Positions 1-6,350 of a DNA stretch of 6,377 nucleotides are shown here, in pieces. How positions within the stretch are numbered: the first letter of the stretch is position 1; the number at the start of each line of letters is the position of its first letter. Source of the DNA: Promethearchaeota archaeon. Its GTDB lineage: Archaea; Asgardarchaeota; Odinarchaeia; Odinarchaeales; JBHLKK01. The stretch lies in the NCBI GenBank assembly GCA_048939465.1, contig JBHLPL010000110.1:1-6377 (forward strand), given 5' to 3'. Under the pieces are notes generated by a model. That model worked only from the letters and a program-made list of their open reading frames with translations. It was not told where the DNA came from and made no database searches. Both the position numbers and the translations under genes were made by a program.

Positions 1-1405
1 GTGGGCCGGTTATTACTGTAAGCTTCTGAGAAAGACCGAGAATTACAGCCTCACGTTGTTCACTATTCAGGGGCAGGATTTCAAGTATGGGCGTATTTTG
101 AGACGAAGAATCGTCAAGAACATTTCCACATAACCATATTCCCAATGCAGTATCACGGTATCCAGTCTCATCGATTGTTTCTAGTTTGGCCATTTCGGTC
201 TCTAATCCCTGAGTGTACGGAGATCTTTCACCAAGGATGAGTATGGCTCTGTTATAAATACCCTGCTCTTTGATTTCTGCTAAAGGAGGCTCTTTTGTTA
301 ATGCATACGGATTAACATTTTCAATCCAGTCCCAATGTGGTCTACTTTCTTGTAACTTCATGAACAACTCATCGATCTCAGGCAAATCACCTTCAGCACC
401 AGCTAAACCTAGTTCCTCAGACAGCTGTATAGACTCATCAGTCAAGTTACCACTTCCTACATCCGCAAGGGACTTAAGTACTGAGAAGTTCAGAAAAGGT
501 GAATCTTCAGTTATACTTGGCTCCTGGTTAGGATGAGAAGGATCCTGTGATAGTGGAAAGAGACAGACAGGATCGACCATGAAGCCTTCCCAGCCCCTTC
601 GACCCTGAACCCATCTCAGACGAACAGGATAACCAACATACATTATAAGCCTACCTCGATCCCGCCTCATCCTGTTGAGTAACTGTCGGGCTGGATCATA
701 CTCAAATATACTTGACATCGTTCTGCTTAGTTGAGGAAGTTCCTCCAATTCAACGTAGTCTGATTGATAATTGCTGGTAGCAAAAACACTGATACCGTCT
801 TCGCGGTCTTGTGACAGGCAGTCTAAATAGTACCGACACAAGCGAGCTAAAAGAGAATCCGGAACCTCGACACGTTTTGGTGTTTCTCGTTGAGAGGTAA
901 TTGCAAGACCTTTCGGCCACCACTTGTATTCCCGGTCTTGTCTAAATTTATTACGGAGTTCACTATAGAGAATAGAATTGACGTCTGTTCTCTCTATACC
1001 AAGCTCCTGAGCAATCTCTCGCGATTTTAGGCCCGGTCTCGCCACAAGCAGTTCAGAAATCCTGACCTTATTACTTTTTGGTAGATCATTGGTCTGAGTG
1101 TCTCCAGCACTTCGTCTTCCGGAACTAGTAGTTGAAAGCCTGATTCTGTCCAGACGAAATACTCTTTCCTCTTGACGTGTAGAACAATAAGCGCGCAAGT
1201 AGACATCTGTGTAGCCATCCACTTTAAACAGCTCCAATGGCCTAACAAGCCGCTTTTCACCCGGTGTTGTACCACCCATATATACTATTTCTAGCCATTG
1301 GGCCTCTTGGATCGCCACCTTAAGCTCTCGGCAGAGAGTATGATCAGAGTCGGATGCGGAGCGACGACTTGCCCTTCGCCAATCATCAAGTTCATCCGAT
1401 GTCAT
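1..1405 (-). CDS. WYL domain + winged-HTH + SF1 (UPF1/DNA2/NAM7-like, COG1112-type) helicase fusion protein; 3' end lies outside the window (partial)
   Basis: Hand translation of the minus strand shows no stop from ATG 1405 to base 2 (468 codons). GGAGA lies about 10 nt upstream of the ATG, and the nearest upstream in-frame stop is near 1485. N-terminus is MTSDELDDWRRASRR. WYL, aa 28-88 (nt 1324..1142): LKVAIQEAQWLEIVYMGGTTPGEKRLVRPLELFKVDGYTDVYLRAYCSTRQEERVFRLDRI. wHTH, aa 113-163 (nt 1069..917): KVRISELLVARPGLKSREIAQELGIERTDVNSILYSELRNKFRQDREYKWW. The frame ends with PLNSEQREAVILGLSQKLTVITGP, a Q-motif plus the start of a Walker A (expected GPPGTGK). It is absent from the ORF track because its stop is off-window. 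Confidence 0.9.
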   Translation of the reverse strand, partial: MTSDELDDWRRASRRSASDSDHTLCRELKVAIQEAQWLEIVYMGGTTPGEKRLVRPLELFKVDGYTDVYLRAYCSTRQEERVFRLDRIRLSTTSSGRRSAGDTQTNDLPKSNKVRISELLVARPGLKSREIAQELGIERTDVNSILYSELRNKFRQDREYKWWPKGLAITSQRETPKRVEVPDSLLARLCRYYLDCLSQDREDGISVFATSNYQSDYVELEELPQLSRTMSSIFEYDPARQLLNRMRRDRGRLIMYVGYPVRLRWVQGRRGWEGFMVDPVCLFPLSQDPSHPNQEPSITEDSPFLNFSVLKSLADVGSGNLTDESIQLSEELGLAGAEGDLPEIDELFMKLQESRPHWDWIENVNPYALTKEPPLAEIKEQGIYNRAILILGERSPYTQGLETEMAKLETIDETGYRDTALGIWLCGNVLDDSSSQNTPILEILPLNSEQREAVILGLSQKLTVITGP

Positions 1406-1620: not shown

Positions 1621-1638
1621 TTGCTCGAATTCGAGCAA
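1621..1638. promoter_or_regulatory. Perfect 18-bp palindrome TTGCTCGAATTCGAGCAA; candidate binding site for a dimeric protein
   Basis: All 9 base pairs checked and there is no loop. It sits in the intergenic region between the two divergent promoters. The palindrome is certain, but its function is inferred. Confidence 0.6.
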
Positions 1639-1984: not shown

Positions 1985-3016
1985 ATGAAGTTACAGAATA
2001 TCGAGACTGCCAAGATTGATCGAAATCCTCAAAATCCCCGTGGGATCAACGTCGTTGAAGAAGATGAAAAGCTGGGATTGCTAATGGATTCAATAGAACA
2101 GTTCGGAATATTGGTGCCATTGGTTGTTACGCCTGAAAACGGACGTTATATACTTGTTGATGGCGAACGAAGGTACGAGGCAGCAAGAAGTCTCGGTCTT
2201 GTAAAAGTACCTGCTTATGTTACGGAAAAAGGGCTCAGTGATAAGGATGTCCTATTACGAATGTTTCACATTCATCATAACCGTGAGCAGTGGGGGCCAA
2301 TACAAGAGTGCATGGCTTTGGAGGATACCTATGAGAAGATAAGGAAACGTCCAAAAATTAAGGGAATAACCGCTGAGGATGCAAAGATACAGGCGATTGC
2401 GGAAGAATTAAGTAAAACCGCAGGAATTGAGTTTCGGACGGCGCGAGACAGAGTACTTTTTTTGCGGTGGCCGGAGGACGTTAAAAACAACTTGTATAAG
2501 ATACCGTCTGGGGCACATCACTATATTGTGGAAATTGAAAACGGTATTATCTTGCCTGCCTTAAAAAACTATCCTGATTACTTTGAAAATGTTCCAGTTA
2601 ATGAAGTCAGACGTTTCCTTCTTGAGAAGATCAGTGTCAACGCCGTTGGGAGGGGGATAGAAGTGCGTGTAGCAACTCCGATAGTAAAGTTTCAAACACA
2701 CAAAACGAAGGAGAGGAAGAAGATTCTCAGAATTCTAGATGATTTAGTTAGAGACAAGAATATGACCTACCAAGATGCTCGCGAGGAATTTGACCGACAG
2801 TTTCCAGAAGCCGCTTCTACACCACCGCCATCACCTCGCAAATTGTTGTCAGCAATATGTAACTTGTGTGAGCAGATCGAAGTATTTGATCCCGAATCAT
2901 TTGAGAGAAGCATCAAAAGGGCTAAGGCAAGCAAGAAAGATGTTATGTCTGCAATGCAAAGACTGATAGACATGCTGAATGATTTACAGTCTCGAATCAA
3001 AATAAATCGCAGTTAA
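1985..3016 (+). CDS. ParB/Srx-family protein (ParB N-terminal nucleotide-binding domain, ParB-type HTH, helical C-terminus); not part of a parAB cassette
   Basis: NPQNPR (aa 14-19), LMDSIEQFGILVPLVV, the arginine patch LVDGERRYEAA (aa 57-67) and VPAYV are typical of the ParB N-terminal domain. IAEELSKTAGIEFRTARDRVLFLRWPEDVKNNL (aa 138-170) resembles the ParB HTH region (ELA..LGKSR..V.N.LRLL.LPEEVQ). A Pro-rich linker (aa 276-286) precedes an amphipathic helical tail. Confidence 0.9.
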   Translation: MKLQNIETAKIDRNPQNPRGINVVEEDEKLGLLMDSIEQFGILVPLVVTPENGRYILVDGERRYEAARSLGLVKVPAYVTEKGLSDKDVLLRMFHIHHNREQWGPIQECMALEDTYEKIRKRPKIKGITAEDAKIQAIAEELSKTAGIEFRTARDRVLFLRWPEDVKNNLYKIPSGAHHYIVEIENGIILPALKNYPDYFENVPVNEVRRFLLEKISVNAVGRGIEVRVATPIVKFQTHKTKERKKILRILDDLVRDKNMTYQDAREEFDRQFPEAASTPPPSPRKLLSAICNLCEQIEVFDPESFERSIKRAKASKKDVMSAMQRLIDMLNDLQSRIKINRS

Positions 3017-3032
3017 TGATCACAGGTCTCAT

Positions 3033-4517
3033 ATGAACGTTTTCAGCGAAGATTCAATCCTATTTGAGGCTATTGATGGCAAATGCCTCAAAAGAATGAG
3101 AGGTATTCCGCATGGCATACAACGCCCATGGAAAGAACTCGTTTCGAAAGGAACGCTCTGGGCAGTGTATCGGATTAGTGGAGAGCATTGGCCGAGATCC
3201 ACTGAGAAAGCAATTCTTAAGTTGAAAGAAAGCTCAGGAGTAAGCCCATGTGTACTCGTAGGAAAGAATGAAGACCTTGGCACTGTAGCAACAGCCTTCA
3301 GCAAGTTACAGGTTCCTGTTGTCACTGAGATAGGAGGACGAGGGAAACTGGTACGACCTAGAGCGGTAGAAAAACAGAAAAAAGTAGAAAAAGGATGGAC
3401 ATCGCGCGTATCACCTTATGTCTTGGAAGATTGTTCAAAATTGAATAACATTCATGCCGATTTGCGTACGCTTATCTGTGTATTGGTGAAGAAGTATGGA
3501 GATAAAAGAGAGTGGGATGACGAACACGAGCATAAGGCGCTCCAGACGTTTTTCTTAGACTTTGCTGGCCTTAATGGTTTAAGTGCTGACGCCTCACGGG
3601 CCCAAATCGTTTTGCGCCGCCTTGAACAAGCTGGGATGGCGGGCAGTCGAGACCATTATTTTCACTCCTTTCAAAACTTCTTCTTTGGCCTATGGGTTAT
3701 AGGAGAAGCGCGTGATTACTTTGAGAAGTGGCTAAAAGTATCCAAACTGTTCTGGAGTGTTTCACTTGAGTTTGTATGGTTTCTCGTTTGCATGTGGCAC
3801 GATGTTGGGTATGGGCTTCATTCGCGGAGAGCTATCGAAGAGAACGTTTTTGGAATCGAACTTGAAGAGTCCCCCACTGACCGATTGAGTACATATCTCA
3901 CAAGCCTACCCATTATGGAGGCCAAAAGAACAATTACTTCACTGATGGAGCACTTACTGGACACCAAACCTCAAACTGGATGGATGGAACCGCGACGAGA
4001 GTCCAAATATACTAATACTGAACAGAAACTTGAAAGAGCCATAGATGCTGATCTGAGAAGTGGACATGGGGCTGCGAGCGCGCTGCGGCTTTACACGGAC
4101 ATGATGAATTTTATCAATAAGTGCGCTGTCCAGGAAAAAAGAAATATCCTAATTCAATCTACTTTAATTGCTGCTGCTTCAATACCTTTCCACGACTGGC
4201 ATTTTAGGAGGTGTGTACGGAAAGAGTATGGTGTCTGCAAAATACCGGTTATAACAATGCCTTTTGCAGCACTTCTTGCGTATGTCGATAGCATACAGGA
4301 AGATAGAAGGAAGTTTGACAGTATCAGAAAAGAGAGGGCGTTCTTGCGGCACCTCACTATAGAAGAAGAAAGGATCATATCAGCAGAGGTTGATGGAGCT
4401 GCACTTGCGAATGGAGATGTTATTTGGAAAATTGTAGAAGCAACCGATGTTCTTTCTTTTTTGGAAAGAAGCACGGCTAGCTTCGAAGTCGAATACCCGA
4501 AATGGTTAGTAGCATGA
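3033..4517 (+). CDS. HD-superfamily metal-dependent phosphohydrolase with an unassigned ~110-aa N-terminal alpha/beta domain
   Basis: Ordered candidate metal ligands: RDHYFHS (H208/H211), MWHDVGY (H256-D257), GHGAASA (H345), IPFHD (H387), AYVDSIQE (D419). The ATG is 16 nt after the parB-like stop. Substrate is unknown. Confidence 0.8.
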   Translation: MNVFSEDSILFEAIDGKCLKRMRGIPHGIQRPWKELVSKGTLWAVYRISGEHWPRSTEKAILKLKESSGVSPCVLVGKNEDLGTVATAFSKLQVPVVTEIGGRGKLVRPRAVEKQKKVEKGWTSRVSPYVLEDCSKLNNIHADLRTLICVLVKKYGDKREWDDEHEHKALQTFFLDFAGLNGLSADASRAQIVLRRLEQAGMAGSRDHYFHSFQNFFFGLWVIGEARDYFEKWLKVSKLFWSVSLEFVWFLVCMWHDVGYGLHSRRAIEENVFGIELEESPTDRLSTYLTSLPIMEAKRTITSLMEHLLDTKPQTGWMEPRRESKYTNTEQKLERAIDADLRSGHGAASALRLYTDMMNFINKCAVQEKRNILIQSTLIAAASIPFHDWHFRRCVRKEYGVCKIPVITMPFAALLAYVDSIQEDRRKFDSIRKERAFLRHLTIEEERIISAEVDGAALANGDVIWKIVEATDVLSFLERSTASFEVEYPKWLVA

Positions 4518-5788
4518 ATGTTAACAGAGTAAATCTTTTCAAAGCTGTGCTGCGTCTACTGCAAAGTACGGATAAAATCTCGAGTCTTGACTTGCCGGGA
4601 AAGGATGGTTTGAGTGGAGGTGCCATCCCATGGCGACTGAACGGCCACACTTTTGTTCATCCATTGCATCGAATGGCGTCAAGAGTCGGAGGATTCCCTC
4701 CACAACTACCTCGATATTTTATTCAACGTTTTACCAAACGGGGAGATTTAATATGTGATCCGTTTTGTGGGAAAGGTACGACGTTACTTGAGGCAGTATC
4801 TTTGAGGCGAAAGGCTCTAGGTTGTGATATCGGGCCTGATGCCGTTATTATATCCCGCGCAAAAACGAATTGGCCTTCGTTAGAAGAGATTCTTCCATAC
4901 GTTGAACAATTACCGCGAGACGGGGTCAAACAAGAAGTACCTGTTGATGTGAAGCTATTCTTTCATCCCAAGACACTAGAGCAAATCCTAGCTGCCAGAG
5001 AAAGGATACTCACCGACAGGTTGATAGGACGTGGACGACGGCGCCAGCTAGCTGAATTTACGATGGGGGTGCTGCTTGGTTGCTTGCACGGTAGATCGCG
5101 ATGCTCTCTCTCTCTACCAAGTAACCATGCGTTTGCTATGTCTCCCAGATATGTGAGGAAGTATGCAAAGGAGCATAATCTTAAATGTCCAAAGCGCGAC
5201 GTCAGAGAATGCATTATAGAGCGCATACTGATGATGCTTCCAGGTCCAAGAGTCAAAGAGTCTGCCCATGTTTTTGAGGATGACGGAAAGAAAATAGGTT
5301 TTAACAAGAAAGGTCAGTGGTCTGGACGAGTCAACCTAATCATTACATCGCCTCCGTATCTAGCTAGACAAACCTACATTAAGGACTCTTGGCTTCGATT
5401 GTGGTTGCTCGGTCGGGATTCTAAAGCAATTAAGGTAAAGTCATTGGAAACAGGTAATATTGTTAGATTCACCGAAATGATGCAGAGCTGCCTCGGAGAA
5501 TTCTTGCGTTTGCTTAGACCGAATGGGCGGTGCTTATTGGTATGTGGTACATCACATTGTGATTTATTGGGTGAAAAAACCAAAGTTCGGATTGCAGGTT
5601 TAGTAATGTACGCTGCGATGAATGTTACACACGAAAAATACAAATGGCATATCGAAAATCTTATTGAAGATAAAATTGTTCTGAAAAGGGGTAGTTATTT
5701 CGCAGTAAGAAGTAATGGTGATATCGATGATACACGGAGGAGGATAAGCGAAGACGATATAGTGAGCTTGGTTAAGATCCACAAATGA
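4514..5788 (+). CDS. SAM-dependent amino-DNA methyltransferase, alpha-class motif order, SPPY motif (probably N4-cytosine; N6-adenine not excluded)
   Basis: Motif X/I region HPLH...FPPQL...FTKRGDLICDPFCGKGTT (DPFCGKG at nt 4757), then a ~190-aa putative target-recognition insert, then catalytic motif IV LIITSPPY (nt 5348..5359) and EFLRLLRPNGRCLLVCG. I prefer start 4514 over 4502 because it gives an ATGA overlap with the HD stop (TGA 4515..4517). Confidence 0.88.
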   Translation: MNVNRVNLFKAVLRLLQSTDKISSLDLPGKDGLSGGAIPWRLNGHTFVHPLHRMASRVGGFPPQLPRYFIQRFTKRGDLICDPFCGKGTTLLEAVSLRRKALGCDIGPDAVIISRAKTNWPSLEEILPYVEQLPRDGVKQEVPVDVKLFFHPKTLEQILAARERILTDRLIGRGRRRQLAEFTMGVLLGCLHGRSRCSLSLPSNHAFAMSPRYVRKYAKEHNLKCPKRDVRECIIERILMMLPGPRVKESAHVFEDDGKKIGFNKKGQWSGRVNLIITSPPYLARQTYIKDSWLRLWLLGRDSKAIKVKSLETGNIVRFTEMMQSCLGEFLRLLRPNGRCLLVCGTSHCDLLGEKTKVRIAGLVMYAAMNVTHEKYKWHIENLIEDKIVLKRGSYFAVRSNGDIDDTRRRISEDDIVSLVKIHK

Positions 5789-6050: not shown

Positions 6051-6350
6051 TCAAAATTCGGTTACATATCCTTGCAGACACACCCTTAGCAGCAGTACCC
6101 CCGGAAGCCCGGTCTGTCTCCGTCCATGATTGAGTCTACCAATGACGTTCTCATCCAGCGGCACTCGCACCAGTTTATCAGCCTCGATCTCACCCTTCAG
6201 ACCGAGCTTCCGGAGCGATTCCACCAGCGGTAGCAGTTCAGCGTCCAGGGCTTCGTCAACGACCCAGCGGAGGGCCTTCCCCTCTCTATCACCACGCTCT
6301 TTGACCTTGTCCCACAGGCCGTTCGGCAATTTCATAGTACGATAGAACAT
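6051..6350 (-). CDS. Tandem ribbon-helix-helix (RHH) DNA-binding protein; true start may lie outside the window
   Basis: Two RHH-like units: YRTMKLPNGLWDKVKERGDREGKALRWVVDEAL and LVRVPLDENVIGRLNHGRRQTGLPGVLLLRVCL. Each has an alternating hydrophobic strand, helix, G-turn and helix. The frame stays open from 6350 to the window end (EICEEDRLP-M). Confidence 0.65.
   Translation of the reverse strand: MFYRTMKLPNGLWDKVKERGDREGKALRWVVDEALDAELLPLVESLRKLGLKGEIEADKLVRVPLDENVIGRLNHGRRQTGLPGVLLLRVCLQGYVTEF

Follow-up and report, generated by a model that had tools for sequence, protein, structure and literature searches.

Contig JBHLPL010000110.1 of the genome bin GCA_048939465.1, assigned to a Promethearchaeota archaeon, was analyzed over its whole length of 6,377 bp, and this stretch (contig C50) is referred to here as the window. 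At its left end, on the minus strand, the window holds the 5' third of a stand-alone gene. Full-length relatives of this gene encode a WYL domain, a winged helix, a family-specific N-domain, a UPF1-type superfamily 1 (SF1) helicase, and a Vsr-type nuclease. We hold with moderate confidence that the product is a defense enzyme in which the WYL domain acts as a tethered binder of single strands.

The gene and its full-length relatives

The open reading frame (ORF) listing contains a single minus-strand frame from 2 to 1477, whose 3' end is open past window base 1. In an alignment, the ATG at 1405 pairs with residue 1 of P0001, a full-length relative of 1,220 aa that is 80% identical. The coding part is therefore 2-1405, which agrees with the unbroken frame of 468 codons described in an earlier note on this DNA. 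The frame breaks off at the contig edge on ...LTVITGP, and all relatives go on as GPPGTGKSQVV. The contig end falls inside Walker A, and approximately 750 residues are therefore absent from this assembly. The earlier note had called the gene hidden and invisible in the ORF track. The gene is real, but its apparent invisibility means simply that it is cut by the contig end.

The genome bin comprises 1.96 Mb in 152 contigs. A bin-wide search found that it encodes TBP, and the bin is thus archaeal. The GC content of the contig is 43.8% and that of the bin is 43.4%, and the tetranucleotide make-up of the contig is ordinary for the bin. The rest of the gene was not found in any other contig of the bin, either in a search with P0001 or by tblastn with P0001 aa 461-1220. 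Leftward extension of the contig, proposed earlier as the way to confirm GPPGTGK and motif II in this copy, was tried and no further sequence was found. Public contigs from the two best-matching sequencing runs begin at nt 28 with a depth of ~6 and gave no leftward gain. An exact 35-mer from nt 6-40 had zero matches in JGI metagenome contigs. Over nt 28-1500, the contigs from both runs follow the window colinearly and show zero differences, and these runs may be the source sample. When sequencing runs were searched for the gene, there was no RNA run among those listed.

Hundreds of full-length relatives were retrieved by protein search. Fifteen full-length relatives bear the WYL domain, 13 of them clusters from JGI, ENA, NCBI, and Logan and the other two reading frames in the loci L008 and L010. 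They are 43-81% identical and have the order from WYL to nuclease in one ORF. The L008 copy is archaeal. Twelve of the best 120 clusters carry WYL, AAA_11, AAA_12, and DUF559/MTES_1575, and so do the L008 and L010 frames. The WYL-bearing relatives are 1,210-1,227 aa in length, except for one of 1,359 aa. A misassembly or gene-fusion artefact is ruled out by the single-ORF order in these 15 proteins, and misassembly is also countered by the colinear public contigs. A frameshift or misassembly joining two genes, which the earlier note had named as one event that would undo its description, is countered by the same evidence.

P0001 possesses a Walker A at 464, DEASQ at 814, GDPHQL at 840, and a C-terminal nuclease with ...LDFAL...IEVDGEYYH.... 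An alignment was made of 48 helicase-nuclease regions, 13 of which come from WYL-bearing proteins. GPPGTGKS, DEASQ, GDPxQL, QGDER, NVA..RAR, and the nuclease D...E-x-D-G..H are invariant in it. The helicase core (AAA_11/AAA_12) is of the IGHMBP2/UPF1 type (TIGR00376, E 2e-40), and the RecD2 match is limited to the Walker A region. Because these motifs are invariant across the aligned relatives, the predicted Vsr/DUF559 nuclease is confirmed for the orthologues. Walker A, motif II, and the C-terminal nuclease expected earlier are thus present in the orthologues (DUF559/MTES_1575, with D, E-x-D, and H), and this copy ends within Walker A, ahead of the other two.

Domains of the N-terminal part

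An AlphaFold2 (AF2) model of the 468 residues was built on 66 sequences and has a mean predicted local distance difference test score (pLDDT) of 82.5. The Pfam matches, this model, and the relatives together bear out an order of N-terminal WYL, then winged helix-turn-helix (wHTH), then UPF1-like SF1 helicase, in which the order of the known regulators is reversed.

The WYL domain is the sole significant Pfam family within the 468 residues (aa 25-89 against PF13280, E 1.7e-11, 44.4 bits with a cut-off of 21.8). No second WYL match was found anywhere in the genome bin. In the model, aa 1-95 form a five-stranded barrel with a pLDDT of 86-97. The barrel matches the folds of CapW (Z 9.9), PafBC (Z 9.5), BrxR (Z 8.9), DriD (Z 8.6), and Hfq (Z 7.9), and the range against the regulators is Z 8.4-9.9. 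Superposition on DriD gave a root-mean-square deviation of 2.6 over 73 residues with 33% identity. The N-terminal WYL signature that had been read from the letters is therefore supported by the PF13280 match, the CapW, PafBC, and DriD folds, and the model.

Sixteen positions are invariant over the 15 WYL modules, including Y42, R52, Y69, R81, and F83, and R84 is near-invariant (at least 90% of the modules). Y42, R52, Y69, R81, F83, and R84 align to DriD Y168, R178, Y192, R204, W206, and R207, residues that the DriD structure shows in contact with the single-stranded DNA (ssDNA) effector (PMC10853764). The position of DriD R189 is Thr in this WYL. The best PDB sequence matches to the domain are the C-terminal WYL domains of two Pif1 helicases from thermophiles, DdPif1 (E 4e-5) and SsPif1 (E 1e-3). 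PafBC (E 0.011) and DriD (E 0.02) were matched in the same search. The WYL of Pif1 is an accessory ssDNA-binding module that is required for helicase activity (PMC9964779; bioRxiv 10.1101/163188). To judge from the conserved residues, the basic and aromatic face of the domain most likely binds single-stranded DNA or RNA. There is no WCX-like domain in the model, and a disordered linker comes straight after the WYL. When the WYL module by itself was used in a word-indexed search, family members were the only matches and no donor of the module was identified.

The flexible linker that had been noted after the WYL is predicted to be disordered, and its sequence and length (aa 96-110) vary between relatives. 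The wHTH that had been placed after it is also found in the AF2 model, where aa 111-168 fold as a winged helix. This segment matches many wHTH domains (Z 7.5-9), including the Z-alpha domains of PKZ and ORF112. The winged helix had been taken as part of a unit with the WYL. This is not so: a large family without the WYL has this winged helix as its ancestral N-terminus, and the winged helix belongs to that helicase family. The WYL is a rare add-on to the family.

The resemblance to Z-alpha was explored further with a family profile of the winged helix. Against all PDB sequences, this profile placed Z-alpha chains above the far more numerous MarR, ArsR, and IclR proteins. The matches were CyHV-3 ORF112 (1.5e-7), PKZ (9e-6), vaccinia E3 (1e-4), ADAR1 (2e-3), and ZBP1 (0.01), and one designed-repeat artefact precedes them in the list. 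For the isolated winged helices of P0010, P0013, and P0017, the top Pfam family is z-alpha (PF02295) with 26-28 bits against a cut-off of 21, in matches that span profile positions 4-47 of 67, the helical part only. Among 56 members, 26 match z-alpha and 48 match HTH_24. The window's own winged helix has no z-alpha match at E<=1, and its best matches are TrmB and HTH_24. The Z-DNA contact columns, taken from ADAR1 K169, N173, Y177, P192, P193, and W195, are basic in 54/56 members, Asn in 52/56, Tyr in 42/56 (His in 10), and Trp in the wing in 56/56. The window copy has R139, N143, Y147, and W162 at these positions. The Pro-Pro ahead of the wing Trp is absent in the family, where the wing reads Y-R-W-W-P. 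Structure cannot discriminate here, because Z is ~8.4 for Z-alpha and ordinary winged helices alike. Bacterial Z-alpha-like domains that were tested earlier did not bind Z-DNA, but they were without the Asn and Tyr (PMC11298590).

It is conceivable, if doubtful, that the winged helix is a true prokaryotic Z-alpha. It would then recruit the enzyme to left-handed Z-DNA, Z-RNA, or similar high-energy structures that arise when phages transcribe and replicate, and the WYL of this branch would add a second sensor, one for single strands. If true, this would be a bacterial and archaeal counterpart to the logic of ZBP1, ADAR1, and PKZ with a helicase-nuclease as the effector. A winged helix that reads nucleic-acid conformation would link prokaryotic and animal innate sensing. 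Separately, the wHTH of P0001 has a weak PADLOC match to the C-terminus of ZorC (E 2e-4).

The N-domain comprises ~255 residues and has no neighbor among solved structures. The best hits in the PDB were Z 3.5 with VIA-align and E 0.25 with Foldseek, and fold searches with the whole model matched the WYL and the winged helix only. Its neighbors in the ESM Atlas are N-terminal regions of bacterial AAA_11 helicases, with template modeling (TM) scores of 0.56-0.75. A weak likeness in shape to DUF4011 was also seen there (TM 0.42-0.45). An ESM Atlas feature search with the N-domain gave scores <=0.78 and was uninformative. Hydrolase entries from a search with the Atlas's own poor model of the domain were dismissed as meaningless. 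The N-domain carries a strongly conserved block, GIYNRA...ERSPYTQGLE(T/S)E.

The helicase start is short in the window but well conserved. L444, L446, N447, E449, R451, T466, G467, and P468 are invariant in the family, and the family profile aligns this stretch to yeast Upf1/NAM7. The helicase motif and Walker A start that had been reported here are therefore genuine. The LN-SEQR motif is present, the relatives complete GPPGTGKS, and only G-P of it lies in the window.

Spread of the family, known systems, and function

The core family, from winged helix to nuclease, is unnamed, widespread, and horizontally scattered. Typical relatives are ~1,113-1,120 aa in length, start at the winged helix, and lack the WYL, with 72% query coverage. 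In a library of 50%-identity representatives, counted by E-value threshold, 901 representatives matched at E<=1e-3 and 170 at E<=1e-30. The match nearly always starts at query aa 113-120. One subset matches from ~183, without the winged helix. A sub-branch without the winged helix (P0210, P0224, P0231, and P0246-P0259) has proteins of ~1,025-1,065 aa that begin at the N-domain.

A search with an alignment query of one genome per species found the family in 111 of ~185,000 species genomes. These represent many bacterial phyla (Planctomycetota, Acidobacteriota, Verrucomicrobiota, Chloroflexota, Pseudomonadota, Patescibacteria, and others) and one archaeon. The family was present in none of 40 relatives of this genome. 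From the 111 matching genomes, 80 loci were kept, and the WYL cap is rare among them. Only three match from residue 1, and these belong to an uncultured archaeon (55% identical), a Dehalococcoidaceae bin, and a Sedimentisphaerales bin.

In a tree of 121 sequences over 355 shared residues, the 13 WYL-bearing sequences are spread over at least four positions (6 changes by parsimony). A single WYL-bearing clade was rejected by the approximately unbiased (AU) test (p 0.0005, at a cost of 143 log-likelihood units). All the WYL modules share the specific N-terminal helix with Trp9, and the grouping of the modules mirrors that of the bodies. The likeliest history is one type of WYL module that either was lost repeatedly or passed between members of the family by recombination. 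N-terminal extras of other kinds exist, for example a second HTH-like stretch in P0086. With such differing extras, the N-terminus is the variable end of the family. Unassigned N-terminal extensions of ~95-125 aa were also observed in P0086 and P0104.

The neighborhoods of the relatives are not conserved, and the gene is therefore a one-gene unit. Several relatives lie among defense and mobile genes. Locus L088 has a Gabija-like OLD/UvrD pair, an AAA-plus-S8 protease pair, and a HEPN protein near the relative. In L092 (649-11351), a complete type I Zorya system (ZorA, ZorB, ZorC, and ZorD) precedes a WYL-less member at a distance of 60 bp, and two HsdM genes come after that member. An integrase, a transposase, and dCTP deaminases lie by the relative in L090. 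The WYL-bearing P0005 in L005 lies beside a SIR2-like gene, an AAA_13 plus PDDEXK gene, and a serine recombinase. With PADLOC and NCBIfam, the relatives gave partial matches to MkoC, PDC-S37, MkoA, Hhe, ProA, and PLuB. Because these matches are partial and below the cut-offs, the family is a relative of the named single-protein helicase-nucleases and a member of none. A defense role for the family is probable on the strength of these associations.

Of the named systems, Hhe (NF042953; PADLOC PDLC02194) is alike in being a single polypeptide with a non-catalytic N-domain, a UPF1-like SF1 helicase, and a Vsr/DUF559-type nuclease that is found in defense islands. Its profile aligns to P0001 aa 785-1196 (E 5e-39 in NCBIfam and E 2e-28 in PADLOC). 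Hhe differs in its length of ~1,800 aa, and P0001 aligns by the second helicase lobe and nuclease only, with 133.5 bits against a cut-off of 2,000. The DUF4011 of Hhe has no Pfam match in P0001, and the Hhe profiles show no N-terminal winged helix or WYL. ProA of the Prometheus system (NF058533) is likewise a single-protein helicase-nuclease, and P0001 aa 754-1216 correspond to ProA 1252-1704 (E 2e-57), with 194 bits against a cut-off of 1,500. ProA is ~1,900 aa in length with DUF4011 and DUF3320, and neither is among the Pfam matches of P0001, P0005, and P0040. The best PADLOC match to the helicase part is MkoC of Mokosh type II (E 4e-62), over aa 692-1083 only. PDC-S37, a PADLOC candidate of ~1,550 aa, matches over aa 785-1217 only and reaches into the nuclease (E 4e-51).

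WYL domains have been found on related enzymes. Three archaeal (Lokiarchaeales) Prometheus homologues carry an added C-terminal WYL (PMC13700489), and the accretion of a WYL on such enzymes thus has precedent, also in archaea. The WYL of these variants is C-terminal, whereas that of this gene is N-terminal and is followed by a winged helix. WYL fusions to SF1 helicases were catalogued in 2014 (PMC4012209). The earlier claim that a WYL-helicase fusion is unique was overstated in view of these reports (PMC4012209; PMC13700489).

Pif1-WYL proteins (TePif1, DdPif1 8BNV, and SsPif1 8BNS) share an SF1B helicase, a single WYL without WCX, and the arginines of R-x-F-R-L-D-R-I. They differ in having a Pif1/RecD-like core and a C-terminal WYL, in lacking a nuclease, winged helix, and N-domain, and in not being defense-island genes. 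BrxR, CapW, DriD, and PafBC share the WYL fold, the ssDNA-contact positions of DriD, and the presence of a winged helix. They are dimers of ~300 aa with the order wHTH-WYL-WCX, whereas here the WYL precedes the wHTH and an enzyme of ~1,050 aa comes after. No paper was found on this exact family in the literature. The novelty lies in how the parts are combined: in an unnamed family, one copy of which is binned to an archaeon, a Pif1-like WYL at the N-terminus is followed by a Z-alpha-like winged helix, an N-domain without a neighbor among solved structures, a UPF1-like motor, and an MTES_1575 nuclease.

In the favored reading, the enzyme most likely acts as its relatives Hhe, ProA, and MkoC do, the motor loading onto nucleic acid that is foreign or aberrant and the nuclease then cutting it. 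The tethered WYL may recruit or hold the motor on single strands such as replication intermediates, R-loops, or resected ends, a role that is modeled on the WYL of bacterial Pif1. A tethered single-strand binder is favored because there is no WCX and because the WYL is on a disordered linker. The nearest solved WYL sequences also belong to Pif1 helicases, which argues for an accessory binder. An accessory ssDNA-binding role is, in our analysis, at least as likely as gating.

Gating would mean that the WYL is an allosteric switch, with a ligand (ssDNA, RNA, or a small nucleotide) that releases a helicase-nuclease otherwise held off. We regard this as possible, with a chance well below that of the tethered binder. 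When the WYL of DriD, PafBC, CapW, or BrxR binds its ligand, the domain joined to it changes in activity (PMC10853764, PMC9122601). Among the WYL modules of this family, the ligand face does not vary, and a nuclease that can cleave the host's own DNA plausibly requires a safeguard. However, some 90% or more of the family functions with no WYL at all, and the core enzyme is therefore independent of a WYL switch. A linker of ~15 disordered residues also speaks against gating, as do the closest sequence relatives, the Pif1 WYL domains that are accessory binders (PMC9964779).

It is rather improbable that the protein is a housekeeping helicase-nuclease for repair or R-loops with no part in immunity, in which the WYL would sense damage-derived ssDNA in the manner of PafBC and DriD. 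WYL proteins that regulate the response to DNA damage do bind ssDNA (PMC10853764, PMC6789036), some copies lie among metabolic genes, and Prometheus has been related to eukaryotic enzymes that act on R-loops in a paper on Asgard archaea (PMC13700489). Against this, the spread among species is sparse and patchy, down to the absence from the 40 relatives of this genome. The integrases and several defense systems that flank the relatives are also the pattern of an accessory, mobile gene.

Several points weigh against the defense enzyme with a tethered WYL as well. The bin is archaeal and nearly all relatives of the gene are bacterial, and contig C50 was assigned to the bin by binning alone. This copy could be truncated, or it may be decayed, because its C-terminal two thirds are unseen. 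The WYL-bearing copies in L007, L008, and L010 lie among housekeeping genes, and the family misses the curated cut-offs of every named system. The defense-island context of the relatives is association only. Because the WYL is without a WCX partner, its ligand could differ; the WCX forms part of the ssDNA pocket in DriD.

Hhe, Prometheus, and Mokosh type II belong to a class of single-protein helicase-nucleases in prokaryotic immunity that keeps growing. This family is compact (~1,115 aa), and its modular N-terminus may be where the choice of substrate happens. Forms with and without the WYL supply ready-made pairs of constructs for distinguishing a recruiter, as in Pif1, from a switch, as in DriD.

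Divergent cassette and other features of the window

The window can be annotated with a partial coding sequence (CDS) of a candidate defense gene that is separate from a ParB-HD-methylase cassette. The coordinates of the main features are listed in Table 1.

Table 1. Features of the window. Positions are in nucleotides, and residue numbers (aa) count from the ATG of the partial gene.
Feature	Position	Strand	Basis or remark
Partial CDS, WYL / wHTH / N-domain / SF1 helicase / Vsr-type nuclease gene	2..1405	-	468 of ~1,220 codons
N-terminal helix, aa 3-11 (ELDDW)	1373..1399	-	AF2 helix; Trp9 invariant in 15/15 family WYL modules
WYL domain, aa 13-95, Sm-like beta-barrel	1121..1369	-	Pfam match aa 25-89 = nt 1139-1333
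Flexible linker, aa 96-110	1076..1120	-	block pLDDT 55-56; aa 98-106 <50
Winged helix-turn-helix, aa 111-168, Z-alpha-like	902..1075	-	AF2 helices (H) 112-122, 128-135, 139-147; strands (E) 154-156, 162-164
Second linker, aa 169-184	854..901	-	pLDDT 37 for aa 171-180
Family-specific alpha/beta N-domain, aa 185-440	86..853	-	stand-alone model pLDDT 82, predicted TM score (pTM) 0.73
SF1 helicase start, UPF1-type LPLNSEQREAV (aa 444-454) plus G467 and P468 of Walker A	2..76	-	conserved columns
Perfect 18-bp palindrome TTGCTCGAATTCGAGCAA, contains GAATTC	1621-1638		divergent spacer
Co-directional cluster of ParB_N protein (343 aa), 494-aa protein, and N6/N4 DNA methylase (428 aa)	1985-5788	+	divergent from helicase gene

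The middle protein of the cassette, of 494 aa, has no family match. The spacer between the helicase gene and the cassette is 579 bp. A ParB or HD gene was found at 0/84 loci with family members, all the WYL-bearing ones included, and there was one weak methylase match. A linkage between helicase and cassette is rejected by the absence of the cassette from these related loci. The cassette and the helicase gene look like accessory modules that are independent of each other and share a small contig.

It is very unlikely, for the same reason, that the WYL and winged helix control the cassette operon or their own promoter as one regulated locus; the divergent genes, the palindrome in their spacer, and the fact that WYL proteins often regulate adjoining defense genes (PMC9122601) would suit such a regulator, but the neighbors of WYL-bearing relatives are mutually unrelated, the winged helix is family-wide whatever the neighbors, and the domain order is reversed relative to known regulators and lacks a WCX.

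An ORF at 6051-6350 on the minus strand (99 aa), near the right contig end, has no Pfam, PADLOC, or NCBIfam match. A TATATAATA box lies ~100 bp upstream of the helicase ATG and fits an archaeal TATA box and a bacterial -10 element equally.

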